Assembly (NCBI GenBank): GCA_035275625.1
Contig: DATEMK010000564.1
Coordinates: 1 to 44,011 of the forward strand
Source: Bacteroidia bacterium
GTDB lineage: Bacteria > Bacteroidota > Bacteroidia > AKYH767-A > OLB10
Direction: 5' to 3'
Length of the DNA: 44,011 bases
The notes below the pieces were generated by a model. The model saw nothing but the letters and a program-made list of their open reading frames with translations, ran no database searches and was not told the origin of the DNA. Position 1 is the first letter of the stretch; each line of letters opens with the position of its first letter. Below are positions 31,592 through 44,011 of this stretch, one piece after another. The position numbers were made by a program, and so were the translations under genes.

Positions 31592-31601
31592 TTGGCAATT
31601 A

Positions 31602-31625
31602 GTAATTGGGTAATTGGGTAATTGG
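31602..31625. repeat. Octamer stutter GTAATTGG x3 in the ruvA leader
   Basis: Read directly. It is preceded by the degenerate unit GCAATTA and begins 11 nt upstream of the ruvA ATG. Confidence 0.9.
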
Positions 31626-31668
31626 TGAATCCTGTAAGCTGTATGGGTAAATAATTGGAGAATGATTG

Positions 31669-31676
31669 CAAAAGTA
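31669..31676 (-). promoter_or_regulatory. Candidate -7 box (TACTTTTG on the minus strand) for ruvA
   Basis: CAAAAGTA on the + strand, 78 nt upstream of the ruvA ATG. The stutter lies between the box and the ATG. Confidence 0.3.
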
Positions 31677-31721
31677 ATTTATTGCTGATTAACTTTTTGC
31701 TGAATGCAATAACCTTTACAT

Positions 31722-32225
31722 GATCTGTTGAGCCCGCATGGCTTGCGATGGAGGTATTTTTATAATCACCTGCGCACTTTCTTTAATCACTTGTGACATT
31801 ACTGCAATCTGTTGCGCTCCCGCTGTGATCTGTTGTGACAAATTTGTAATCTGTGGTTTCCGCGCGGGGATCAACAGCCGCCTCGACACAATCAGTTGTT
31901 TATTTATTGCAATCACAGGTTCCTTTACGAAAATCAGTGGTTTGCTTTCCGAAATCAGAGGTTATCTCTCCTGGATTGCTGGTGTGCTTTAAGGAATCGT
32001 TGGTTGTCTTTACGGGGTTGGGGGTTCTCTCTCCGGGATCGTTGGCAGGCTCTTGGTGATTTTTAGTCGCCTTTCAAAAATTCGCAGTGTGCTTACGAGG
32101 ATGATGAGTTCCCTCTCCGGGATTCGAGGTGTGCTTTTGAAAATTCGTGGTGCCCCCGCGACAATTTGCGGCCACCTCGTGGAGATTGCTGGTAATTTCC
32201 TTGTGGGTGGAGGTGAGTTCTTGGT
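31722..32225. repeat. Array of 24 tandem 21-bp units in perfect phase (diverged, no indels)
   Basis: An RATY core (GATC/AATC/GATT/AATT) sits at 31722+21n for nearly every n from 0 to 22. Consensus is about RATCnnTGGTnnnCTYTCnnn. Confidence 0.9.
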
Positions 32226-32229
32226 TTGA
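31738..32229 (+). pseudogene. Conceptual heptad-repeat ORF (I-x-G/C/S-x-L-x-x, 22 heptads) interrupted by one TAA; coding status unproven
   Basis: ATG 31738 to TGA 32227-32229 is open except for TAA at 31990-31992. Synonymous-type variation occurs at the conserved Ile, Gly and Leu codons. There is no family match and the antisense frame is also largely open. Confidence 0.3.
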
Positions 32230-32549
32230 ACATGGGATTTGTAAGGTTTCGGGAGGAATTTATTGTTTTTGGAGGAAGTGTTTCAGGAGAATTTTGGAAA
32301 GGTTCTGATGTTGAATGAGTTTGGATTTTGAGTGGTGCTGACGGTGAGGGGATTTGTGGTGTAAGGGATTTAGGGAAGGAGTTTTTGGAAAAAGGGAAGT
32401 TGAATTGATCGGTTAATTGCAAGTTTTGAGCCAGAAAAAAGTAAATTGTCTGAACCTTGATTAAATGGATTAAGAGATTAGTATGATTAAAAATGAAACA
32501 GATTTTGAAATCCTTTTCATAGTCTTATGAGAAATGAGAGGTTATGAAA

Positions 32550-33992
32550 CTACATTACGTCAATGAGAGTACCATCTCCGAACGCTCCGACAAGTTCTGA
32601 TTCAATAGGGCGGCAAATGTCTCTTTCATCCAAAATGGGTTCAAAACTTTTCCCATATTTATCAGGATTACGATAAAGATGTGACTCACCGAAATTGAGT
32701 ATGGTATACCAACTATTTGGTGAAAAGGAATTGTGATCTTCAGCAATCTGCTGAATAAAACAACCTAATGCATAACAAGACATTTTGCTTGCAGGCATTT
32801 TTAATTCCTCATAAATTATTTTTGCAAATGAGTGATATTTCTTTGAAGTAACAATTACTGATTTATCTTCTACGTGATTTATGACAGTTGCTTTTTCTTC
32901 TCTTGCGCCAATTATTTGCAATTTGCTTAATCTGGAAAGGTCAATTTTTTTTGATTTGCAGGCTTCAGGATTTCGCTTTAATTCATTACGCTTCCTGGTA
33001 AGGCTTTTTAACATGTCTCCAGAAGTGCAAAAAGGAATATATAAAAAATCGGCATAGCTGTTGAACAACTCCTCGTAAAGGGCGTTTTTATTTGTCAATT
33101 TATTTTCCGCAAAATATTCCTGATCCTTAATGTAGTATCCATTTCTGTTAAAAGTTAAATCCAAAACCTCAGTGGTTGTCAATTTATTAAAATTAACATC
33201 AGAATAATCATATTGTACAACACAACCAATTTTTTCTAATTTTCCACCATCTGCTCTCTCAGATTCTTTACATAATACCCGTAATGGCGCCATTCCAAAA
33301 CTGGATAAAAAATATTGGAGACTGAAAGCAAGTTTGCATTTGAAGACTGTGCTTAAAACAGGCAACGCAGTTTTTTGCAGTAAATTTTTTTCTATCAACG
33401 ACCTGTAGATATTAAATATATCAATTGCTTCGCGATCATTGAAATGTCCCGTTGGAAGGGTGGATTCATCTTTTATATAAACATTTTTAAATGGTATTAA
33501 TTTACTTATAATTGGCATTAGTTCATTTAATATTTTTTTGATAATTTTTATATCATCTTTAACCTCCTGTATACTATTTAAATTTTCTAACTTTTTTTCG
33601 AATTTGCTGAGTATATCCACAAAATTTATGCGGAAGTTATTTGTAGCTGGGTTTGGAAATTCATAGAGAAAATTTTCATATTCAGGCATAGGAAAGTTTT
33701 CTATGGCTTGCGAAAAAGGTTTGCCTGTACTGTAAGTATTTAAGGCTGTCAGAATATTATAACTACATCCATGTTTTTTAAAACTACTTTCTAATGATTT
33801 ATAATAATAGGTCTGAAAAACCGTGGAGTAAGACAGTTTATAATCCAAGTCGGAATTTGAATTAATGTGGTTTACGAGCGCTTTAAAACTTTCCTCATCA
33901 TTTTTCCACTTATAACCAGGATTTTCAAACAGGAATCGTTTAATGGCTTGTTTTAATAAATCGCTAATTGTCTGGGATGTAACTTGAGGCAT
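32550..33992 (-). CDS. Fold-type-II PLP-enzyme-like protein (Trp-synthase-beta/threonine-synthase superfamily) lacking the Schiff-base lysine, with an unknown N-terminal domain of about 160 aa
   Basis: Residues 171-188 VYIKDESTLPTGHFNDRE align with the family motif K-x-E-x-x-N-P-T-G-S-F-K-D-R, but with N184 where the PLP lysine belongs. About 300 aa follow, which is the expected domain length. IPFCTSGDM sits where the phosphate-binding Gly loop is expected. AT-rich gene. Confidence 0.55.
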   Translation of the reverse strand: MPQVTSQTISDLLKQAIKRFLFENPGYKWKNDEESFKALVNHINSNSDLDYKLSYSTVFQTYYYKSLESSFKKHGCSYNILTALNTYSTGKPFSQAIENFPMPEYENFLYEFPNPATNNFRINFVDILSKFEKKLENLNSIQEVKDDIKIIKKILNELMPIISKLIPFKNVYIKDESTLPTGHFNDREAIDIFNIYRSLIEKNLLQKTALPVLSTVFKCKLAFSLQYFLSSFGMAPLRVLCKESERADGGKLEKIGCVVQYDYSDVNFNKLTTTEVLDLTFNRNGYYIKDQEYFAENKLTNKNALYEELFNSYADFLYIPFCTSGDMLKSLTRKRNELKRNPEACKSKKIDLSRLSKLQIIGAREEKATVINHVEDKSVIVTSKKYHSFAKIIYEELKMPASKMSCYALGCFIQQIAEDHNSFSPNSWYTILNFGESHLYRNPDKYGKSFEPILDERDICRPIESELVGAFGDGTLIDVM

Positions 33993-34322
33993 TTCTTTAA
34001 AATTTAGGAGTTAAAATTATTTTTCACGATTTTCATTCTCATAATATAAAGGTAGTAAAAGTTTGCAAAGGAAACAAATTTTTTTTATCAAATTAAAGTT
34101 GTCTGAGCATTAAATTTTTATTTTTTTTTATTTTTTATCAACAATTTTTGTTTAATAAGTATTAATAATGCGGTAAATTAAATAAATATGCCATCCCTTG
34201 TCCAGATATTTCTTTTTGCTTCTCTTCAAAAGATTTGCAATAATATGTCAAATATAACTTTCATGCAAATATAAAAAAGTAAATATGTGATAAACGTGAA
34301 AAAACGTTGGACGTAATGAAAT

Positions 34323-34340
34323 ATCATACTTTAGTATGAT
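34323..34340. promoter_or_regulatory. Perfect 8-2-8 palindrome ATCATACT-TT-AGTATGAT (operator-like)
   Basis: Read directly. It is centred about 45 bp upstream of the candidate -7 box of the 374-aa/CHASE2 operon, inside the 432-bp divergent intergenic region. Confidence 0.4.
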
Positions 34341-34376
34341 TTTACGAAATTACTTTTTTTTCATGTTTCTCTTTCA

Positions 34377-34384
34377 TAGATTTG
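34377..34384 (+). promoter_or_regulatory. Candidate -7 box (TAGATTTG) for the 374-aa/CHASE2 operon
   Basis: Exact TAnnTTTG match 40 nt upstream of ATG 34425. Confidence 0.35.
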
Positions 34385-34424
34385 GTGGTGTTAAAATACT
34401 GAAACCATTAAAAACATTAAAAAA

Positions 34425-35549
34425 ATGAAAAACGTTTACTCTAACCCCGTGAAGATTTTCTTCGTCCGGGCGGCCAGTGGCAAATTGTTATTATTTGTTG
34501 TCTTGTTTATTTTCTCCGGCTTTTCCTTGCATCCTCAATGCATTTTACCGGATTCTATCTTGCAACAGGTCAAAATTATTGAATTTCCACCAGAATGGTG
34601 TGATCAACTTTTGCCTGTCGTATATGACATGCGAAAGAATAATATGGCTTCGTGCAGAGATATTAAAGACTACCTTGATTCAAATATCCGTGGTGGGGCA
34701 AAATTCGAAATTGAAGTTTTGTTTGGAACAAAATGGGTTACAATAAAATCGTGTACTTCCTATCAAGAGGAAAAAAACCAAGTCCCAGGACGAATTGATT
34801 TGGCTACTGAAGAAATAACTTTTAATTCTGATGCGCGCTATTCCAAAGCAAAATCTTTGCTGGAAAATGAAATCAGCCGATTTTGTTTTAAATTGGATTC
34901 GATAACCGTGGAGGACTCATCCGTAATGCCTTTGCTTAATATGTTTTCACAATTTTTAGCAACAAGGTTTACAGAAAAAGGGGACATCATTCAAATAGAT
35001 TCAACAGTTTCCAGCCAGGTTCTACTTAAGGATAGTTCATATGAACAATTCACCGGACTTAATGACTTGTCAATAGCACCGGTTGTTACAGTATTGCTTT
35101 CCGACAATGATTTGTCGGACAAAAAACGCCTGCAAGATTACAACGATTGGCTGAATACAAAATATGTTGCAGAAATGTCTTCATTAACAGGTTTAATATT
35201 TGAAGATATGAAAAAAGCAAAATCAGAAATTCTACATTCCGAACAACCGTTTGAAAGCGGACAAAATGTTAATGTTAAAAAAAATAAAGTGAATAAAACA
35301 GATACGGTTTCTGTTAGGACATGCCCTTTTTTAAACAGTCTGCCAAAAGAAAATAAAGCCTCTTTAAAATTTGAACTAAGATTTTTATCGTATAAAGAAA
35401 AAACGGAAGTTATTCAATTAATCAGTGTTTTAAAATCAATTTGTCCAGATATTACTCCAGAAGAATTACTCATAGAGGTAAAAAATCATTTGCGGAAGAA
35501 GTATGATTTTGTTAATGATGCTATGGTTGATTCATTGGTAATAAAATAA
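34425..35549 (+). CDS. Hypothetical exported or membrane-anchored protein
   Basis: N-terminal hydrophobic segment KLLLFVVLFIFSGFSL, no recognised domain. Its stop lies 33 nt before the next ORF on the same strand. Confidence 0.65.
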   Translation: MKNVYSNPVKIFFVRAASGKLLLFVVLFIFSGFSLHPQCILPDSILQQVKIIEFPPEWCDQLLPVVYDMRKNNMASCRDIKDYLDSNIRGGAKFEIEVLFGTKWVTIKSCTSYQEEKNQVPGRIDLATEEITFNSDARYSKAKSLLENEISRFCFKLDSITVEDSSVMPLLNMFSQFLATRFTEKGDIIQIDSTVSSQVLLKDSSYEQFTGLNDLSIAPVVTVLLSDNDLSDKKRLQDYNDWLNTKYVAEMSSLTGLIFEDMKKAKSEILHSEQPFESGQNVNVKKNKVNKTDTVSVRTCPFLNSLPKENKASLKFELRFLSYKEKTEVIQLISVLKSICPDITPEELLIEVKNHLRKKYDFVNDAMVDSLVIK

Positions 35550-35582
35550 ATTTTCAAAAAATCTAAAAAACTCAAAATCGAA

Positions 35583-37034
35583 ATGCATACTCTTTCCATA
35601 ATAATATTAAAAACTGAAGAGAAGTATAATGCCTGGCGCGAAAAAACGAAAAAAAATTTCGGTGTAATTTTTTTGGGATCATTGTTTTTTACTGCAGCAA
35701 CTTTATTAGTTACCGTTTATTTAAGCTATTGGTTTAGCGTTGAATCTTTATATGGTGAGTTTACAGGAATAAAGCGTTGGGGGATTTTTGGCAATCATTT
35801 TAAACAACGTGATTTTATTGAAAGCAATTTTCTTTTATTGGATGTGAATCATGATATTTCAGCGGCATATTCCGATTTTGACATTTCTGATAAAGACATT
35901 GATAAAATTCCTTTGGTGGGCGTACCAAACAGGAAAAAATTGGCTACTGTATTAAAATGGCTTTATGCTAATCAAAATTTATACGAAGTGATAATCAGCG
36001 ATGTCCTATTCACCAAAAAATCATTGGCTTATCCTGAAAAATTACCGAAGCATTATTATGATTCATTATCAAAATCATATCGAGATACAGTACTCTTGAC
36101 TTATATAAATTATGATGACAGTATTATACGATATTTTGATTTGCTTGATTCAAAACGCAAAATTATTGCAGCCGGAGAGTATAATGGAAATGCATTCGAA
36201 AAGGATATTTTATCCGGATCCCACTTTAATCCTGATAGCAGAGGATACGTAAATTGCAGTGATGATGAACAAACCCGGTTCCTGAATTATAAATTAGCAC
36301 GTTGCAATTCGAAAAATAAAACATTTTTGAGCTTACCACTTAAAATGTATGAAAGGATAAATCATAAAACAATTTCAGCTAATGGCAGGGAATTGACACT
36401 TAATATTGCTGACTCAGATAACCGGAAAAAAAAATTTAAATTTTGGGGCTTTTATTTGAATCAATTTGTTCCTGAATTTTATTATAATCAAAAGGATATT
36501 GATAATTTGTTAACTTATGCAAAGTCTGAATTCCCAGATTCAGAAAGAGTATCCTTAATTACCTTAAATGAATCTTATGTTTATCCAGAGCGTATTAAAA
36601 AAATCCTTTTAAGTGATCAAGGGAATAGAAAAAGCATATTTATCGGCTCGTTTGACCGCAATCAATCCGATAAGCATGATGTTTTACAGGCGGGAATGAT
36701 GAATGGATCATCTATCATATTGAATGTATATTACAATTTGCGGAAACAGCAGAACAAATTAAGTATCGTTTTGATTATTTCGCTTATCGTCTTATATTTT
36801 ATAATTCTTTCTATTTACGTAAGCCAAACCATAAATAATATTATTCTAACCATTGTAGCACATATTGGGCATGAATTGCATTATTATGGCCTCGCTTTTT
36901 TGTTAATCATTGTATCATTTTGTTTTAATGTTACTATGAGAATTATTGTACTTGAAGTTTTGCTATTTATTGCAGGATTACTTTTAAGGGGATTTAAAAT
37001 AGTTATTAAGAAAAAGCAAAGTCATGGGGAGTAA
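35583..37034 (+). CDS. CHASE2-like extracytoplasmic sensor-domain membrane protein without any output domain
   Basis: One N-terminal TM, an ectodomain of about 330 aa, then 3 C-terminal TMs and a stop. Ectodomain blocks match CHASE2 as I recall it: FLLLDVNHD...VPNRKKLATVLKWL...VIISDVLF, then GYVNCSDDEQTRFLNYKL...FLSLPLKMY, then SIFIGSFDRNQSDKHDV...MMNGSSIILNVYYNL. Confidence 0.6.
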   Translation: MHTLSIIILKTEEKYNAWREKTKKNFGVIFLGSLFFTAATLLVTVYLSYWFSVESLYGEFTGIKRWGIFGNHFKQRDFIESNFLLLDVNHDISAAYSDFDISDKDIDKIPLVGVPNRKKLATVLKWLYANQNLYEVIISDVLFTKKSLAYPEKLPKHYYDSLSKSYRDTVLLTYINYDDSIIRYFDLLDSKRKIIAAGEYNGNAFEKDILSGSHFNPDSRGYVNCSDDEQTRFLNYKLARCNSKNKTFLSLPLKMYERINHKTISANGRELTLNIADSDNRKKKFKFWGFYLNQFVPEFYYNQKDIDNLLTYAKSEFPDSERVSLITLNESYVYPERIKKILLSDQGNRKSIFIGSFDRNQSDKHDVLQAGMMNGSSIILNVYYNLRKQQNKLSIVLIISLIVLYFIILSIYVSQTINNIILTIVAHIGHELHYYGLAFLLIIVSFCFNVTMRIIVLEVLLFIAGLLLRGFKIVIKKKQSHGE

Positions 37035-37347
37035 CCGCTGAAAAAAAATAATTTGATTTTTTAAATCCGTTTTATAGCCTTTATGAAAAATGAAGTATTT
37101 GCAACTTTATTCAGATAAACTTCAATCTTCCGGCAAAATGAATTGATCAGTGTATGATTCCTCACGAATTATTTTTGATATAAAAGAGAGATCATCAGGA
37201 TTGATTCTTTTTAAAAATAAATTTGACACCCGTTTGGGATTTTTATCCTGTATTACAATCTCTGTCGCTTTGATTAACGACTGAAATATGGATCTGTCAA
37301 TTATTCGATTGTAATATGGAAACGAATACCCGGGAGCTACCCAGTTT

Positions 37348-37674
37348 ATGGAAACAGCACCAGATTTTTACAATGAGCTGATTGCGTCATTTGAAATTAA
37401 CGATTACCCGACTCATTATACTGAGTTTGATATCCTGACAAGAGATAAAGCAACGGGAGAAGCATTGGGCGGAGTGAAAATTACTGCTACTTGTACAAAG
37501 GGCAGCATGGAGCAATTTTCGAACCCGGAAGGTGCCGCAGATTTTATCCAGTTTAAGCCGACCTGGTGGACGCTTACTTACGAATGTCCCGGTTATGAAA
37601 AACTGGTAATGCCAAACCAGAAGGCTGAAAAAGGAGTCAAGATGAGCCTTGTGGCTGAACTTGTAAAGATTTAA
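37348..37674 (+). CDS. Small protein with a carboxypeptidase-regulatory-like (prealbumin-fold) segment; possibly a gene fragment
   Basis: ILTRDKATGEALGGVKITAT...NPEGAADF resembles the CarboxypepD_reg pattern. No signal peptide. A strong terminator follows. Confidence 0.45.
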   Translation: METAPDFYNELIASFEINDYPTHYTEFDILTRDKATGEALGGVKITATCTKGSMEQFSNPEGAADFIQFKPTWWTLTYECPGYEKLVMPNQKAEKGVKMSLVAELVKI

Positions 37675-37698
37675 GTGATTTTAATTTGTTAAATTGTT

Positions 37699-37728
37699 AA
37701 TCCCGGGGTAGTGCCCGGGATTTTTTTT
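37699..37728 (+). terminator. Rho-independent terminator
   Basis: Stem TCCCGGG / CCCGGGA (7 bp), loop GTAGTG, then 8 T. Flanking A residues allow bidirectional function. Confidence 0.85.
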
Positions 37729-37781
37729 ACACCCATGACCCAAAAAGAGGACTGAACAGAAAATCCAGAAAACGGTTTCTT

Positions 37782-38072
37782 TTAATTAATAGCCGGATTG
37801 GGAAAACGTGTGTTATTTTCCCAGCAATAAACAAGATTGTTCAGCAAACTGCGCATCCAACTGGATCCGCGGTTGATTAAATCTTTGCCGGTTGCCTGGA
37901 GGCGGATGCGGAATTTAAACCTGTCGAGGTCAATTTCGGGTTGTGACAAATCGGGATCAATGAGCACTTCTCCGTCATAGTCAACAACTAAATTGTGGTT
38001 GGGTGTGGAAGCATCACACTGGCTCAGCAGCTTGTTTAGCTCCTGGATGGATGGATTGATGAACAGATTCAT
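37782..38072 (-). CDS. Hypothetical 96-aa protein
   Basis: ORF only; no motif recognised. Confidence 0.35.
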   Translation of the reverse strand: MNLFINPSIQELNKLLSQCDASTPNHNLVVDYDGEVLIDPDLSQPEIDLDRFKFRIRLQATGKDLINRGSSWMRSLLNNLVYCWENNTRFPNPAIN

Positions 38073-38243
38073 AGATGTGTTGTTTTAAAAATGTGAAATG
38101 TTAAGAACGGTTGTTAAAAACACATACGGAAAAATTATGCCAGAAGTTTTTAAGCTGGAAAAAATACAGGTTATTATTTATTGAGTGCCATATTCCACAG
38201 TTATCATCAGCAAGTGTGAACATTCATCCTCAAAATAGACGAT

Positions 38244-38285
38244 AGACCAAAGACCAAAGACCATTGACGAGTGACAAAAGTGAGT
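38244..38285. repeat. Six phase-locked heptamers (AGACCAA family)
   Basis: AGACCAA AGACCAA AGACCAT TGACGAG TGACAAA AGTGAGT, downstream of the beta-helix gene. Confidence 0.85.
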
Positions 38286-38305
38286 TTTGATCCTGAACCT
38301 TCACT

Positions 38306-40015
38306 TTAAAAATCTTTTATTTGAAATACATATCCATACTTCCATGCAGGATTATTCTGAACGCGGCAGAATTTATTTCCGTTCAAACCATTTTGCGGTG
38401 CAAATGTATTGTTGCTGTCGGATGAGTTCTCGTTCAAATCTATTTCAATAAAATAAAGCCTTTCATTTTTTCTTGAGGGAGATTTTTCATTGAACGTATT
38501 GCTGATGAAAGTACAGCCCATAAATCTTCCGAGGAAACCTCTCAGGGGAGAATCAGGGAATTGAGGAATTATTTTAACAAGGTCATTCACATAAAATTTC
38601 CAGTTGCAATGATTGAAGATTCTCTCCGAATTTCCATCTTTACTTTCAACAGTAGTTATTGCCAGTGTTTTATGAATTTCAAAATTGCAGTAATTGAATT
38701 CATAAAAATGGTCATCGGGTGGATCAATTCCGAAATCAATCAAATAACCGCCCCAAAAAGAAAGTGTGTCTTTAGCCCCTTTTCTCCAGTCAGTGATGGT
38801 ACAGTTATTAAATTTCATACGGTCAGCAGAATCAATTCCGGCCACATGTGTAAATCTTCCCCTGATAATGCAATCATTGAAAACAGTTCGAATCATTCCT
38901 TTGGGCCAGATGCTCCACGAACCGGCATGAGAAGCGGAAAACTCGCAATCATTAAAAGTGATGTCCGAAACATAGGGAAAATGATTGTCAGAAATCAGTC
39001 CGCAAAACATGTTATCCAGAAATTTACAATTGGCAAATTTGATGTTCACACAACTTCCACCGGCTTCCGGCTCAATGTCAACGCCTGCTCCCGGGTTGTT
39101 GTAAAATACGGTTCCCGTATTTGAAAAGATGCCGTTAACGACATTAATATTGGTCCCCGCAGTAATGCTCAGGCCCTGCCTTGAATTGGCGGAGCAGGTA
39201 ATATTTTCAAGATGTATGCAGTCAGGATTGCCATTTGAGTAGCAAAGCATGATACCGTCACGCCCGAAATTATTGCACGTAATATTTTTTACTGTTATAT
39301 TCTTAGAACCAAATACGTCAATGCCATCATGACCTATTTGATAACCGTTGCATTCGCCAAAAAATCCTCCAAGTTTCATTTTAGTATTGTTGCCATTCAT
39401 TTCAATCTGCTCAATCGTTATGCAGGAACTGTTCTTTATGTGAATAAAAGTTCCCAGCGTGGCATAGGCGTTGTAATCCTTAGTGGTGCTGCAGGCTTCG
39501 TTTGAGGGTATATACGAAACCGGTTGCATCTGCTTATCATATCCGCCAAAAGGCAAACCGTTTTTGTATTTGATAACGGTTCGTTTGCTCCCTGAAATAA
39601 TTATGTTTTTTGCATTCTCCAATTCCATCATGTTTACACCCTTACGGGTAATGCGGATGTCATTCACAAAACTTTGCTCATTGCGCAGAGGATTGGTTAT
39701 TTTCTGACCAGGTTCAAGCTGCAATCCTACAAGATAAGTTCCCGGTGGAATGTATAATTTAAGTATAAAAGAATCGCTGCAATTTTTATTGAGCCAGTCA
39801 GAGGCAGCGAGGAAAGAAAAGGAGTCGTCATGTTTATTATTGCCTTTCGCGCCAAAGTCTGCTTTAAGATCTTTTGTGATGATCTGTAAAGGTGTTTTGC
39901 ATTGGCAATTGTTTTCAAACGCAGCCTGCTCTCCCGATTTTGCAGAGATAAAAGCTGCGACCAGGAATGTTCCGCAAATAATAACCGTGAATACTAAGAG
40001 CAGGTTTCTTTTCAT
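38306..40015 (-). CDS. Secreted right-handed parallel beta-helix protein (pectate-lyase-superfamily / tailspike-like glycanase fold)
   Basis: Signal anchor; DFGAKGNNKHDDSFSFLAA N-terminal motif. Successive PbH1-type coils: ITVKNITCNNFGRDGI, IHLENITCSANSRQGL, INVVNGIFSN, IKFANCKFLDN, ITFNDCEFS, MKFNNCTITD. Confidence 0.78.
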   Translation of the reverse strand: MKRNLLLVFTVIICGTFLVAAFISAKSGEQAAFENNCQCKTPLQIITKDLKADFGAKGNNKHDDSFSFLAASDWLNKNCSDSFILKLYIPPGTYLVGLQLEPGQKITNPLRNEQSFVNDIRITRKGVNMMELENAKNIIISGSKRTVIKYKNGLPFGGYDKQMQPVSYIPSNEACSTTKDYNAYATLGTFIHIKNSSCITIEQIEMNGNNTKMKLGGFFGECNGYQIGHDGIDVFGSKNITVKNITCNNFGRDGIMLCYSNGNPDCIHLENITCSANSRQGLSITAGTNINVVNGIFSNTGTVFYNNPGAGVDIEPEAGGSCVNIKFANCKFLDNMFCGLISDNHFPYVSDITFNDCEFSASHAGSWSIWPKGMIRTVFNDCIIRGRFTHVAGIDSADRMKFNNCTITDWRKGAKDTLSFWGGYLIDFGIDPPDDHFYEFNYCNFEIHKTLAITTVESKDGNSERIFNHCNWKFYVNDLVKIIPQFPDSPLRGFLGRFMGCTFISNTFNEKSPSRKNERLYFIEIDLNENSSDSNNTFAPQNGLNGNKFCRVQNNPAWKYGYVFQIKDF

Positions 40016-40196
40016 AAGACCGGGACTAAATTAATGAATTGGAATTGTCCCGAAGACAATGTCATTAAGTTAAGCCCGTTAAATGAAATTCGATCATATG
40101 CGTCAGCATCCCTCCCCTCCGGGGAGGTCAGGTGGGGCTTGATCAATTGTTAATTGTTTACAATTTGCTCCCGCCTCCCGGCTCCCGACTCCTGTC

Positions 40197-40204
40197 TATA
40201 TTTG
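40197..40204 (+). promoter_or_regulatory. Candidate -7 box (TATATTTG) for the AhpD-like gene
   Basis: Exact TAnnTTTG match 14 nt upstream of ATG 40219. A second ATG lies at 40228. Confidence 0.3.
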
Positions 40205-40218
40205 CTTAAATAAAATAA

Positions 40219-40569
40219 ATGATTCACATGAACATACTCGTAAAGCAATTTAACGACTACCGGCAGCGGATGAATGAAAAAATCCTTGCGGCTGATAACA
40301 CAGTTATTAAACGTTTGTATAATTTAGATACAAACACTTACCTGGAAGGGGCTCTTTCAGTAAAATCAAAAGAAATGATGGGGCTGGTGGCTTCGCTCGT
40401 TTTGCGTTGTGATGATTGTGTAAAATACCATCTTGGAAAATGCAAAGAATGTAATGTCACCACGGAGGAACTTTTTGAGATTTTTGCCGTTTGTAATATT
40501 GTAGGTGGCACAATTGTTATTCCCCATACGCGAAGAGCGGTGGAGTATTGGGAAGCGCTTGGGGATTGA
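40219..40569 (+). CDS. Carboxymuconolactone decarboxylase / AhpD-like family protein
   Basis: 116 aa with the CxxC motif in LRCDDCVKYHL, typical of the AhpD core. Confidence 0.82.
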   Translation: MIHMNILVKQFNDYRQRMNEKILAADNTVIKRLYNLDTNTYLEGALSVKSKEMMGLVASLVLRCDDCVKYHLGKCKECNVTTEELFEIFAVCNIVGGTIVIPHTRRAVEYWEALGD

Positions 40570-43112
40570 AAAATATCAGCGAATACGAATTAACAAACAG
40601 AACTTTGAACTTTAAACTTAACTCGTACATTGTAAATTGTACATCGTACATAATTAAAAAGTTTTTACTTGTCCTTTTTGGAATATTATTTTTTTCCACA
40701 ATAAGCAATGCGCAAACCTGGAGCATTTCGGGAAAAGTTATTGACGCCTTAACACGCGACCCGGTTGATTATGCGTATGTCACCGCAACGGGTGATTCAG
40801 CTTTTGCAGTTACTGATGCAGATGGAAACTATACCATATATATAAGCAGTTCTGCAAAGGCTATCGCTGTTTTAGCAGACGGCTATGCAAAATTTACCAT
40901 ACCGGTAAAAAATATTATCAGGATGACTCTGAATGTGGAGCTTACAGCCAATGCATCACGGGTGACAACTGAAGCAAATAAAGCAGGGGAGAAACCGGTG
41001 GAATATCTTGTGGAAAAAATAATTGAAAACAGGGATAAGAACGATCCTGTAAATAATGATTATTTCAGCTATCGCACGTATGAAAAAATAGAATTTGACC
41101 TTGCAAATGTTTCAGATAAGATCAAAGAAAAAAAAGTCATGAAACCGTTTGCATTTATTTTTGATAACATGGATTCCGTTACCACTAACGGGAAACCATT
41201 CCTGCCTTTCTTTTTTACTGAAACCCTTTCCGATGTATATTATGAGCATAAGCCAAAACAAAAGCGTGAAATAGTTATTGCAAGCAAAACAGCCGGGGTT
41301 GAAAACTTAACCCTGATTCAATTGCTCAAAGACATTTACCGCGACATAACAATTTATGATAATTACATCAATGTTTTCGGAAAAAGCTTTATCAGCCCTG
41401 TTTCAAATGAAGGGTTGAAACATTATGATTATTTAATCAGGGATACTACCATTATTGACGGGAAAACGTGTTATAAAATTATTTTTTCGGCAAAGAAAAA
41501 ATTCGATCTCACGTTTAATGGTGAGTTCTGGTTTCACGACACTACGTTTGCTGTTCAGCGCATCACTATGTATCTTAATAAAGATGCCATGATAAATTTT
41601 GTAGACGATTTTAAATTTGTAAAAGTTTTCAAAAATATTGATGACAATAAATGGGTGTCTGACCGTGAACAATTAGTGGTGCAGTTCTCCAACCGCGAAA
41701 AGGGAATGAGCATCATCGGGCGAAAATCACAATATTATGCAGACACAAAAATCAATCAGCCTCCGGCTGATTCAGTTTTCAAAATAACATCCACCATTCG
41801 TTTTGATCCAATGGCGTATGATCAGCCCAACAAGTTCTGGAGAGACGAACGGCTTGAAAAACTTACAGACCGTGAAAAAGATATATATGATTTAGTGGAC
41901 ACCTTAAAAAAACTGCCTGCATTCCAGATCTATGTAGGTTCGGTGGTGGTTGCATTAACCGGTTATGTGCCTTATGGCAAAATTGACTATGGCCCTTATT
42001 ATCATTTAATCACTAACAACACTTTAGAAGGAATCAGGTTCCGTTTTGGCGGGCGAACAAATGAAAAATTCAGCACGCGCTGGCAATTTGAAGGCTATGG
42101 CGCTTATGGCACATTGGACGGAACTTTCAAATACATGGGAGGGATACGTTATGCTATTAAAAGAAAACCTTTTAAGGCAATAGGCTTCCAGTATAAAAAT
42201 GATGTGGTGCAACCCGGCTTGTATGAAGGATATTTTAAAGACGAAGGATGGATTGTAATTTTATTTAAACGCAATCCTTCCGACAAAATGTGTAAAGTTG
42301 AATCTCAAAAAGTTTACTATGATGCAGCCTACCGTTCGGGATTGTCCTTTCGCCTGCAGTATCTTAAAAATCATTACACCACTGTTGGCAACATTAATTT
42401 TGATTATTATGCCAATGACAGCAGAACGATAATAAAAAATGATTTGCACACCTCGGAATTCTGGCTGAGCGCAAGATATTCTTACGGAGAAAAATTTATT
42501 GAAAAAAAATACAAGCGGTATTCGCTGGGTTCTGATAATCCTGTTTTCCAGCTAAACTACATAAAGGGTTTGAAAAATTTCCTGGATGGCGAATTCAGTT
42601 ATTCTAAAATTGCAGCGAGATTGACTGACAAGCTTAATTTATTTCCTTACGGACATTTGAATTATTCCTTTGAAGCGGGAAAAGTTTTTGGAAATGTTCC
42701 CTATCCGCTGCTGTATGTGCATCGCGGCAATGAATCGCGGCTTTTTGATTACACAGCATTTAATTTAATGAATCATTACGAGTTTGTTTCTGACAGGTAT
42801 GCAGGCGCAAGTGCTGAACATCATTTTGACGGTTTTGCTTTGCGCAGAATTCCATTGATAAGAAAATTGGACTGGCGCGAAATTGTTTCAGCCAGGATAT
42901 TGTTCGGCCATCTGTCACAGAAAAACAAAGAGATTTTATTTGATCCGGCTAATGTCTCTAACATACGTACCACACCCTATATAGAAGCCGGTGTTGGCCT
43001 TGAAAATATTTTGAAACTGATACGAATTGATGCGCTTTGGCGTTTAACCTATCTTAATAATCCCGTTGCGTCAAACTTTGGCGTACGTGCAAGCCTTCAG
43101 TTATTGTTCTGA
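40548..43112 (+). CDS. Carboxypeptidase-regulatory-like domain plus DUF5686-like outer-membrane-associated protein
   Basis: SGKVIDALTRDPVDYAYVT CarboxypepD_reg pattern after the signal peptide (I)KKFLLVLFGILFFSTISNAQ. The coordinates give the maximal ORF from TTG 40548, which overlaps the previous gene. The real start is probably TTG 40605, or ATT 40653 directly after the stutter leader. Confidence 0.78.
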   Translation: MGSAWGLKNISEYELTNRTLNFKLNSYIVNCTSYIIKKFLLVLFGILFFSTISNAQTWSISGKVIDALTRDPVDYAYVTATGDSAFAVTDADGNYTIYISSSAKAIAVLADGYAKFTIPVKNIIRMTLNVELTANASRVTTEANKAGEKPVEYLVEKIIENRDKNDPVNNDYFSYRTYEKIEFDLANVSDKIKEKKVMKPFAFIFDNMDSVTTNGKPFLPFFFTETLSDVYYEHKPKQKREIVIASKTAGVENLTLIQLLKDIYRDITIYDNYINVFGKSFISPVSNEGLKHYDYLIRDTTIIDGKTCYKIIFSAKKKFDLTFNGEFWFHDTTFAVQRITMYLNKDAMINFVDDFKFVKVFKNIDDNKWVSDREQLVVQFSNREKGMSIIGRKSQYYADTKINQPPADSVFKITSTIRFDPMAYDQPNKFWRDERLEKLTDREKDIYDLVDTLKKLPAFQIYVGSVVVALTGYVPYGKIDYGPYYHLITNNTLEGIRFRFGGRTNEKFSTRWQFEGYGAYGTLDGTFKYMGGIRYAIKRKPFKAIGFQYKNDVVQPGLYEGYFKDEGWIVILFKRNPSDKMCKVESQKVYYDAAYRSGLSFRLQYLKNHYTTVGNINFDYYANDSRTIIKNDLHTSEFWLSARYSYGEKFIEKKYKRYSLGSDNPVFQLNYIKGLKNFLDGEFSYSKIAARLTDKLNLFPYGHLNYSFEAGKVFGNVPYPLLYVHRGNESRLFDYTAFNLMNHYEFVSDRYAGASAEHHFDGFALRRIPLIRKLDWREIVSARILFGHLSQKNKEILFDPANVSNIRTTPYIEAGVGLENILKLIRIDALWRLTYLNNPVASNFGVRASLQLLF
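40600..40655. repeat. Eight phase-locked heptamers (GAACTTT to CATCGTA family)
   Basis: GAACTTT GAACTTT AAACTTA ACTCGTA CATTGTA AATTGTA CATCGTA CATAATT, followed by AAAAAG as at 16663-16668. Confidence 0.88.
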
Positions 43113-43166
43113 ATGGATACCGGAAAAAATGTAAAATTAATTTATACTATTTTCGTTCCCGTTTTA

Positions 43167-43201
43167 GTAATCAGTGATCAGTAGCCAGTAGTCAGTTGAG
43201 A
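43167..43201. repeat. Five phase-locked heptamers (GTNNTCA family) in the lptB leader
   Basis: GTAATCA GTGATCA GTAGCCA GTAGTCA GTTGAGA. The same TCAGTGATCAGTA word occurs at 13045-13057. Confidence 0.85.
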
Positions 43202-43262
43202 TAAAATTATAAATTGCTCCGAAGGAGTTCCTTCGGGATAAATCCTAAATCGTACATTCTTC

Positions 43263-44011
43263 ATGCGTTTGCGTTCAGAAAACTTAGTCAAGATTTACAA
43301 AAAGAGAACTGTTGTTGACCATGTTTCTGTTTATGTTGATCGCGGAGAAATTGTCGGGCTTCTTGGTCCTAATGGTGCCGGGAAGACGACAACCTTTTAT
43401 ATGATTGTCGGGTTGATTCGTCCTGTTGAAGGGAAAATTTTTCTGGATGAAACCGATATTACCAAAGTGCCGATGTACAAACGCGCACAAAGGGGAATCG
43501 GCTATCTTGCCCAGGAAGCATCTGTATTCAGAAAATTAAGTGTGGAGGATAATATTAAAGCTGTTTTGGAAATGACCATCCTTTCAAATAACGAACAAAA
43601 CATAAAACTTGAAGCATTGCTTGATGAATTCGGATTACAGAAGGTAAGAAAAAACCGTGGCGATCTTTTATCAGGAGGCGAAAGAAGGCGCACGGAAATT
43701 GCCCGTGCACTTGCCGTAGATCCCAAATTCATTTTGCTTGATGAGCCTTTTGCCGGTGTAGATCCTATTGCGGTGGAAGATATCCAATCCATTGTTGCCA
43801 GGCTCAAATTTAAAAATATCGGTATCCTTATTACGGATCACAACGTAAATGAAACATTGTCTATTTGCGACAGGGCCTATCTCCTGATTGATGGTAAAAT
43901 CTTCAAACACGGCTCTGCCGAAGAACTGGCCGGCGATGAACAGGTGAGAAGATTATACCTCGGCCGTAATTTTGAATTGAAACGCAAGGATTACCTGCAC
44001 GAAGAAGCGGC
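43263..44011 (+). CDS. lptB: LPS export ABC transporter ATP-binding protein (partial; the 3' end is off-window)
   Basis: Not in the ORF track because no stop is reached. ATG 43263 gives [51 protein letters not shown]..., with Walker [13 protein letters not shown] signature LSGGERRR, and Walker [12 protein letters not shown]. Confidence 0.92.

Follow-up and report, generated by a model that had tools for sequence, protein, structure and literature searches.

What can a protein do that has the fold of a pyridoxal 5'-phosphate (PLP) dependent enzyme, but not its Schiff-base lysine? The question is raised by a gene in a 44,011-nucleotide stretch of DNA (hereafter the window) from a Bacteroidia bacterium (GTDB lineage Bacteroidota; Bacteroidia; AKYH767-A; OLB10; GenBank assembly GCA_035275625.1, contig DATEMK010000564.1, positions 1 to 44,011). 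The gene is complete, lies on the minus strand (32550..33992) and encodes 480 amino acids (aa). A first-pass annotation, made from the letters alone, had noticed an open reading frame at this position with an asparagine in place of the catalytic lysine of fold-type-II PLP enzymes, and had suggested a non-catalytic binding or regulatory module. The reading frame is intact, the observation is confirmed, and sequence and structure prediction, as far as they reach, support its interpretation. The protein belongs to a new Lys-less clade within a known superfamily. With moderate confidence, we propose that it is a non-catalytic, ligand- or partner-binding protein with a sensing or regulatory part in an envelope module of three genes, one of them for a CHASE2-like membrane protein.

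Assignment to the fold-type-II PLP enzymes

Searches with the window protein alone were of little help. The PALP family of Pfam (PF00291) scored 11.5 bits (cut-off 35; E 0.19, not significant), and a genome-wide scan with PF00291, which detected two canonical PALP genes elsewhere in the source genome, did not pick up the window protein. The best NCBIfam match was a threonine synthase model with 17.6 bits (cut-off 421), and no significant match was obtained among PDB sequences, PHROGs or PADLOC. A word-indexed homologue search returned the window protein only; the same search with the neighbouring CHASE2-like protein (see below), used alone or as a two-sequence profile, gave nothing beyond the self-match. 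Automated annotation would call the window protein "hypothetical" or, wrongly, a PLP-dependent enzyme.

An exhaustive phmmer scan, covering 1.84 billion cluster representatives, uncovered 76 relatives (individual ones are given below as P0002 and so on). Three of them, in addition to the query, were found at E <=1e-30, the best with E 3e-47. PF00291 was matched by 35 of the 39 best relatives (best E 2.2e-24), and a TIR_2 domain was present in four of these 39. A profile of the family retrieved chains of cysteine synthase, threonine synthase and serine racemase from the PDB (5xem with E 4e-6). The AlphaFold2 model calculated on the family alignment has a mean pLDDT of 86.5 and a pTM of 0.71. 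When it was compared to the PDB with Foldseek, the top 50 matches were without exception O-acetylserine sulfhydrylase (OASS), CBS, SbnA, O-ureido-serine synthase, threonine synthase or serine racemase, with E values of about 2e-7 to 6e-6, a probability of 1.00 and target-normalised TM-scores of 0.5-0.62; the alignments to OASS, CBS, SbnA and threonine synthase span about 300-340 columns. The confident model thus matches fold-type-II PLP enzymes exclusively. A PALP-type profile, proposed as a check by the first-pass annotation, gives no significant match with the window protein alone, but family and model support the PALP fold. Based on the transitive homology, the profile match and the confident model with its Foldseek matches, we consider the predicted fold-type-II assignment to be secure.

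The window protein shares the two-lobed alpha/beta fold with OASS, cysteine synthase, CBS, SbnA and threonine synthase (4lma, 5xem, 2q3b, 5d85 and 2c2b; NF004170/PRK05638 type), and also the K-x-E...G-x-x-K-D-R scaffold, except that Asn replaces the catalytic Lys. The identity to these enzymes is just 10-18%. The window protein differs from them in an additional N-terminal domain and in the lack of canonical Asn and Gly loops.

Loss of the Schiff-base lysine and of the pocket motifs

The segment with the PLP lysine motif (aa 171-188; 33429..33482, minus strand) translates to VYIKDESTLPTGHFNDRE, with the coordinates that had been reported for it. It is part of the PALP-like catalytic-fold domain (aa 166-445; 32658..33497, minus strand), delimited by Foldseek alignments and by profile alignment to the relatives. 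About 295 residues follow the motif, in agreement with the earlier figure of some 300. The scaffold residues K174, D175, E176, S177, G182, D186 and R187 are kept; the column of the Schiff-base lysine holds an Asn encoded by AAT (33438..33440, minus strand). The first-pass annotation was right about this replacement, but its numbering (N184) is wrong by one, the residue being N185 when counted from Met1. As to a different Lys at the cofactor position, all alignments place N185 in the lysine column.

In an alignment of 77 sequences, this column contains Lys in 70 proteins, Asn in two (the window protein and P0002) and Gln in three (P0003, P0004 and P0025); the remaining two are P0030 with a Cys and a protein truncated at this very column. 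The consensus of the Lys-bearing family is IKDESxNPTG(T/S)HKDRMAWE. Profile comparison (hhalign) of the five Asn/Gln proteins with 20 Lys-bearing relatives gave a probability of 100% (E 2.4e-44, 390 columns) and put TGhFqDReA of the former onto TGTHKDRmA of the latter. In the PDB alignment, "thkDR" of the family falls on "STKDR" of the cysteine synthase 5xem, the motif that holds the Schiff-base lysine in OASS. Judged from these alignments, a single-base sequencing error (AAT instead of AAA or AAG) cannot explain the Asn pattern, because four other proteins share the loss of the lysine and several other motifs have changed alongside.

The "Asn loop" is one of these motifs. The TSGNTG of 5xem aligns with SSG(S/N)AA of the family (full motif LSxISSG(S/N)AA), which in the Lys-less proteins has become x-x-C-(K/S)-L-A. 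The window protein reads LSTVFKCKLA (aa 213-222; 33327..33356, minus strand), with FKCKLA in the aligned part. Cys219 is invariant throughout the Lys-less clade, whereas residue 220 varies between Ser (P0003 and P0004) and Lys (the other three members). According to the alignments, K220 of the window protein occupies the position of OASS Asn71, adjoining the former cofactor site.

The phosphate-binding loop is degenerate as well. GTGTGGSF of 5xem corresponds to PFGTGDLF of the family and to PFCTSGDM of the window protein, where the segment LYIPFCTSGDML (aa 317-328; 33009..33044, minus strand) has kept only P320 and G325 of the family motif VPFGTGDLF; clade-wide, G325 alone is retained. The glycine of the Asn loop and the first Gly/Thr of the phosphate loop are among the residues lost. 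Two further family motifs, EPSGIAGLA and IVNTGK, are also altered in the Lys-less clade.

Nineteen residues are invariant in the clade, twelve of them located in five pocket-forming segments that together cover 15% of the protein; a hypergeometric test gives p 1.4e-6 for this clustering. C219, D290, F294, N303 and Y306 are among the clade-specific invariants. Since full length and 19 invariant residues are kept despite an identity of 22-32%, the clade does not appear to be drifting freely. The pattern suggests that catalysis has been lost in these proteins and a constrained pocket retained.

A small clade of Lys-less proteins

When 74 PALP domains were placed in a maximum-likelihood tree, the five Asn/Gln proteins were found on one side of a branch with an SH-aLRT support of 95, the window protein and P0002 being sisters (96). 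Both the tips and the stems of the clade are long, with 1.05-1.18 for each stem, compared to a median of 0.64 for end branches and mostly 0.05-0.3 for inner branches elsewhere. Identity to the window protein is 22-32% in the clade alignment, and 38% for P0002 over the stretch matched by phmmer. On this tree, the Lys-less proteins are one clade and the window protein is not an isolated mutant. A full-text literature search yielded no description of fold-type-II PLP proteins that naturally lack the lysine and have been maintained in evolution.

The clade is rare. Scans of genome and metagenome contigs with back-translated patterns found no further Lys-less members, and a profile of the clade had no match among PDB sequences. 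We detected no relative of the window protein in the congener G001 (90% complete), nor in most of 60 close genomes, where the single real match (in G047) is Lys-bearing. Among 400 other genomes of the phylum, we detected one Lys-bearing relative and no further one. No Lys-bearing paralogue of the family that could be regulated by a dead subunit was found in the source genome. Together with the two canonical PALP genes elsewhere in that genome, these results speak against a housekeeping role of the window gene.

A separate case is P0030 (444 aa, metagenomic), which lies on a long branch near P0015 within the Lys-bearing part of the tree and shows an independent loss from K to C (GVHCDR).

The Lys-bearing parent family and the N-terminal domain

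The Lys-bearing relatives consist of a five-helix N-terminal domain and a PALP domain, and their source name is just "pyridoxal-phosphate dependent enzyme" (e.g. HIG51074.1 of Candidatus Marinimicrobia). They remain far below all NCBIfam cut-offs, the nearest models being threonine synthases (20-48 bits). This "THKDR" family has in common with the window protein the domain architecture, the IKDES, TG and DR motifs, and a sporadic distribution that hops between contexts. In contrast to the window clade with its Asn or Gln and its rewritten motifs, it keeps the Schiff-base Lys, SSG(S/N)AA, PFGTGD, EPSG and NTG; the window protein in turn has an extra helical insert of ~40 aa and no TIR fusion. 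TIR_2 fusions occur in five of ten long Lys-bearing relatives.

The N-terminal domain of the window protein (aa 1-100; 33693..33992, minus strand) is modelled with pLDDT above 90 and aligns with the N-termini of the Lys-bearing relatives (the hhalign alignment spans residues 1-439). The N-terminal region had been described as unrelated, which does not hold: about 100 aa of it are a domain common to the Lys-bearing relatives. In both the window protein and the "THKDR" family, this domain is followed by the start of the PALP part with PEFP..FPATP..IKDES; in the TIR fusions, it is placed between TIR and PALP. The helical insert (aa 124-165; 33498..33623, minus strand) follows the "EFP..PAT" start of PALP and precedes the first strand, according to the secondary structure of the model, and corresponds to a gap in the alignments to the Lys-bearing relatives.

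With the N-terminal domain as query, Foldseek had no match below E 0.1 in PDB or BFVD (the best, to a phage "SOS-response repressor", has E 0.49), and a profile of the domain had no credible match among PDB sequences. An identity as Phage_int_SAM_5, hinted at by a sub-threshold match in one relative (19.5 bits), was rejected after profile-profile comparison with 12 genuine SAM-like domains from the source and related genomes (hhalign probability 0.6%). P0032 (397 aa, metagenomic) is a chimera of the N-terminal domain and the first half of PALP with a phage-integrase-like C-terminus (Pfam Phage_integrase, 6e-6), and probably represents a gene disrupted by integrase insertion or an assembly join.

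The genomic contexts of the Lys-bearing relatives are diverse. They include a region resembling an integrative and conjugative element, with a co-directional gene for a 180-aa transmembrane protein, as well as a DNA methyltransferase neighbour and an amino-acid symporter neighbour; one TIR fusion lies within a polysaccharide locus. In P0020 (contig L028), TIR_2-PALP is followed by co-directional genes for a 226-aa transmembrane protein, a 208-aa TIR protein and a 550-aa AAA_31/CbiA-GerE protein, a cluster that looks like a conflict system and is absent from PADLOC. In Marinimicrobia (contigs L030-L033; P0080/P0006, a 90%-identity cluster of 318 members), the PALP gene is divergent from an envelope-type operon for a 219-aa lipoprotein-like low-complexity protein and a 381-aa protein with signal peptide that resembles an outer-membrane protein. 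The operon is found on at least three contigs, a fourth showing the 381-aa gene alone. This divergent layout equals that of the window.

Linkage to a CHASE2-like membrane protein

As the first-pass annotation had stated, the gene is divergent from a neighbouring operon (34425-35549 and 35583-37034) and lies in an AT-rich island, with a GC content of 0.30-0.31 at 33001-37000 compared to ~0.39 elsewhere. The two transcription units are separated by 432 bp of AT-rich sequence (33993..34424). A near-perfect palindrome in this region, AATATCATACT-TT-AGTATGATTTT (34320-34343; inverted-repeat search), ~80 bp upstream of the 374-aa reading frame, is a candidate operator, although its surroundings are very AT-rich. 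The first gene of the operon (34425..35549, plus strand) encodes an orphan of 374 aa that is exported or membrane-anchored, with a hydrophobic segment at residues 9-42, and has no family match in Pfam, NCBIfam, PHROGs or PADLOC. The second (35583..37034, plus strand) encodes the CHASE2-like membrane protein of 483 aa, recognised by its homology to a neighbour of P0002 and by a transmembrane scan. The Lys-less protein itself is cytoplasmic, the same kind of scan having detected no hydrophobic or transmembrane segment in its 480 aa.

The 483-aa protein is predicted to have one N-terminal transmembrane segment, an extracytoplasmic domain of ~340 aa and a C-terminal transmembrane block, without a cytoplasmic output domain. 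It has no Pfam CHASE2 match of its own, and its topology fits an arrangement of one transmembrane segment, CHASE2 and three transmembrane segments. The link to CHASE2 is made through the 496-aa neighbour of P0002, to which it is 27% identical (E about 1e-16) and which does match Pfam CHASE2 (34.1 bits, cut-off 26.3, E 2.7e-8). Receptors with CHASE2 (PF05226) share this layout; they carry cyclase, kinase or GGDEF outputs, whereas the window protein ends just past the last transmembrane segment. The CHASE2-like protein had no match in a search of 300 further genomes from the class.

On the contig of P0002 (L010, 7.99 kb), the Lys-less gene is again divergent from an operon, here for a 291-aa protein with signal peptide and, after 12 bp, the 496-aa CHASE2 protein. 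The layout of the latter is like that of the window copy, with an N-terminal transmembrane segment, an extracytoplasmic part, a C-terminal transmembrane block and no output domain. The Lys-less and CHASE2-like genes are the only ones that window and L010 have in common, and in both the module is poorer in GC than its flanks (0.31 vs 0.38 in L010, 0.30 vs 0.39 in the window). The two genes are therefore linked in two independent contexts. Co-occurrence with a CHASE2-like neighbour, raised by the first-pass annotation, was thus seen in the sole other contig long enough to display such a gene.

For the remaining clade members, contigs are short. Upstream of P0003 and of P0025, the divergent gene codes for a membrane protein that is small (~155 aa) and has several hydrophobic segments, and no homology was detectable when the small transmembrane neighbours of the clade members were compared. 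The contigs of P0025, the most divergent Lys-less member (L014/L015), have neighbours of the toxin-antitoxin type (AbiEii, DUF6088, HTH_3/SocA_Panacea); a 498-aa TPR-like neighbour was compared to the CHASE2-like proteins and is not one of them. P0004 adjoins a weakly HEPN/AIPR-like protein. Thinly sampled as it is, the linkage of the Lys-less clade to CHASE2-like membrane proteins is suggestive.

A proposed pseudoenzyme as sensing or regulatory component

According to our proposal, the window protein would be a cytoplasmic pseudoenzyme derived from a rare, threonine-synthase-like branch of the fold-type-II enzymes, which carries the signature IKDESxNPTG(T/S)HKDR. A small clade of this branch has Asn or Gln in place of the Schiff-base Lys and has rewritten loops for the PLP phosphate and the substrate carboxylate. 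With the lysine lost and these loops changed, it is most likely that neither an internal aldimine nor PLP catalysis is possible. As the fold is kept and the clade invariants cluster in the former active-site loops, the pocket may have been preserved to bind a small molecule or the peptide of a partner. The protein could then be the soluble part, for sensing or regulation, of a horizontally acquired, AT-rich module of three genes, whose other products are the exported protein and the CHASE2-like protein that lacks an output domain. The clade-wide loss of the lysine and of the other cofactor motifs supports the non-catalytic part of the earlier interpretation; a sensor or regulatory role is what we infer.

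CysK offers a precedent, being a fold-type-II protein that also has a non-enzymatic role in binding and docks the peptide of a partner in its active-site cleft. Its complexes with CysE and CdiA-CT (5j43 and 8zyc are among the Foldseek matches) exemplify the kind of mechanism proposed here. Unlike the window pseudoenzyme, CysK is a fully active PLP enzyme, and a partner tail for the window protein is only hypothetical.

Several points weigh against our proposal. Just five Lys-less sequences of the clade are known. K220 lies beside the former cofactor site, and the Foldseek hits include Lys-to-Ala mutants (3x44 and 3vsc), related enzymes that keep PLP-amino-acid adducts, so the window protein may still bind the cofactor. 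A CHASE2 neighbour is visible in two contigs alone, the only two that are long enough, and the middle exported proteins of window and L010 have no detectable similarity. The contig of P0004 lacks a membrane-protein gene within 1.4 kb upstream. Adjacency in an island could also reflect co-transfer rather than joint function.

If the pairing is functional, it offers a handle on what output-less CHASE2 proteins signal through, and on the role of the widespread, context-hopping "THKDR" PLP enzymes, some of which are fused to TIR. A bolder version, which we regard as decidedly speculative, would have the dead PLP-fold protein as the cytoplasmic output of the output-less CHASE2 receptor in a signalling design of a new kind, its pocket (once the PLP/amino-acid site, now with the invariant Cys) reading a metabolite or the cytoplasmic face of the receptor and passing on signals from the envelope. 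The TIR fusions would then hint at the "THKDR" family as an unrecognised, amino-acid- or PLP-linked branch of bacterial conflict signalling.

Alternative explanations

The most tenable alternative, though in our estimate an unlikely one, is a conflict or defence module in which the Lys-less protein would be a cytoplasmic sensor of the abortive-infection type and the membrane proteins effectors or triggers. Its mechanism overlaps with that of our proposal, and the difference is in the biological role. It would fit the TIR_2 fusions among the Lys-bearing relatives, one of them followed by the transmembrane protein, second TIR protein and AAA/GerE protein described above, and likewise AbiEii, DUF6088 and SocA_Panacea near P0025 and the HEPN/AIPR-like protein beside P0004. 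The distribution is very patchy, and the AT-rich island is missing in the congener G001. However, none of the three module proteins of the window has a PADLOC or PHROG match, PADLOC matches in the relatives are confined to the TIR parts, and the window protein has neither a TIR nor another effector domain. A literature search found no link between CHASE2 and anti-phage defence, nor relevant work on TIR and PLP together, and PLP enzymes do not figure in a recent systematic survey of TIR systems. Other Lys-bearing relatives are located in polysaccharide or metabolic loci.

It is doubtful that the window protein is still a PLP enzyme, with a relocated lysine in the Asn loop (K220 or K218) or another nucleophile such as Cys219. 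K220 corresponds to OASS Asn71 beside PLP O3'/C4' and is a Lys in three of the five clade members, Cys219 is invariant, and conservation within the clade is highest in the pocket segments. Since P0003 and P0004 have Ser at residue 220, which is not what is expected of a conserved catalytic residue, a relocated Schiff-base lysine seems unlikely as a feature of the clade, although the window protein itself could conceivably have one. In addition, the phosphate-binding Gly/Thr residues, EPSG and NTG have changed too, and the long branches of the clade fit released catalytic constraint.

Improbable, too, is a functionless passenger, i.e. the gene of a "wandering" PLP enzyme that was inactivated after transfer and is now drifting. 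An orphan-like singleton in an AT-rich island, the long branches, and a parent family that is an unlinked passenger in many contexts are what such a scenario would lead one to expect. On the other hand, the frame of 480 codons is intact and the model confident; at 22-32% identity, the clade has preserved length, fold and the 19 invariants (including C219, D290, F294, N303 and Y306), and the pairing with the CHASE2-like protein is kept across 27-38% protein identity.

MocR/GabR regulators combine a winged helix-turn-helix (HTH) domain with a fold-type-I aminotransferase-like domain and are divergent from their target genes; GabR keeps the PLP lysine. A fold-type-II analogue, whose N-terminal domain would bind the divergent intergenic DNA while the dead PALP domain senses an effector, would resemble them in the reuse of a PLP-enzyme fold as effector sensor and in the divergent gene, and is invited by the palindrome ~80 bp upstream of the operon, by the like layout of the Lys-bearing Marinimicrobia relatives beside envelope-protein operons and by faint BFVD matches to a "SOS-response transcriptional repressor" and HTH proteins (E 0.5-5), but we consider it highly improbable, as fold and sequence searches detected no winged HTH in the N-terminal domain and no significant match to it in PDB or BFVD, the Phage_int_SAM_5 hint was rejected, and palindromes are common in AT-rich DNA.

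The surrounding locus

The window is syntenic with the congener G001 across ruvA and the beginning of sprA (77.5% nucleotide identity), and this synteny breaks off precisely at the ruvA start codon (window position 31592). Nothing to the right of it (31593-44011) is matched upstream of ruvA in G001 (locus L025, G001:C14), where the right-hand genes are on other contigs. Scans around the Lys-less gene gave no Rfam match, no tRNA gene and no terminator-like site, and promoter-like sites were as numerous as expected from shuffled sequence. The 21-bp repeat that had been reported just past the 3' end of the gene is present, but it comprises only 2.5 copies according to Tandem Repeats Finder (31911-31963) and is ~590 bp away from the stop codon. 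It lies in a stretch of 950 bp (31600-32550) that contains no convincing gene and is strongly G+T-skewed on the plus strand, with a GC skew of 0.25.

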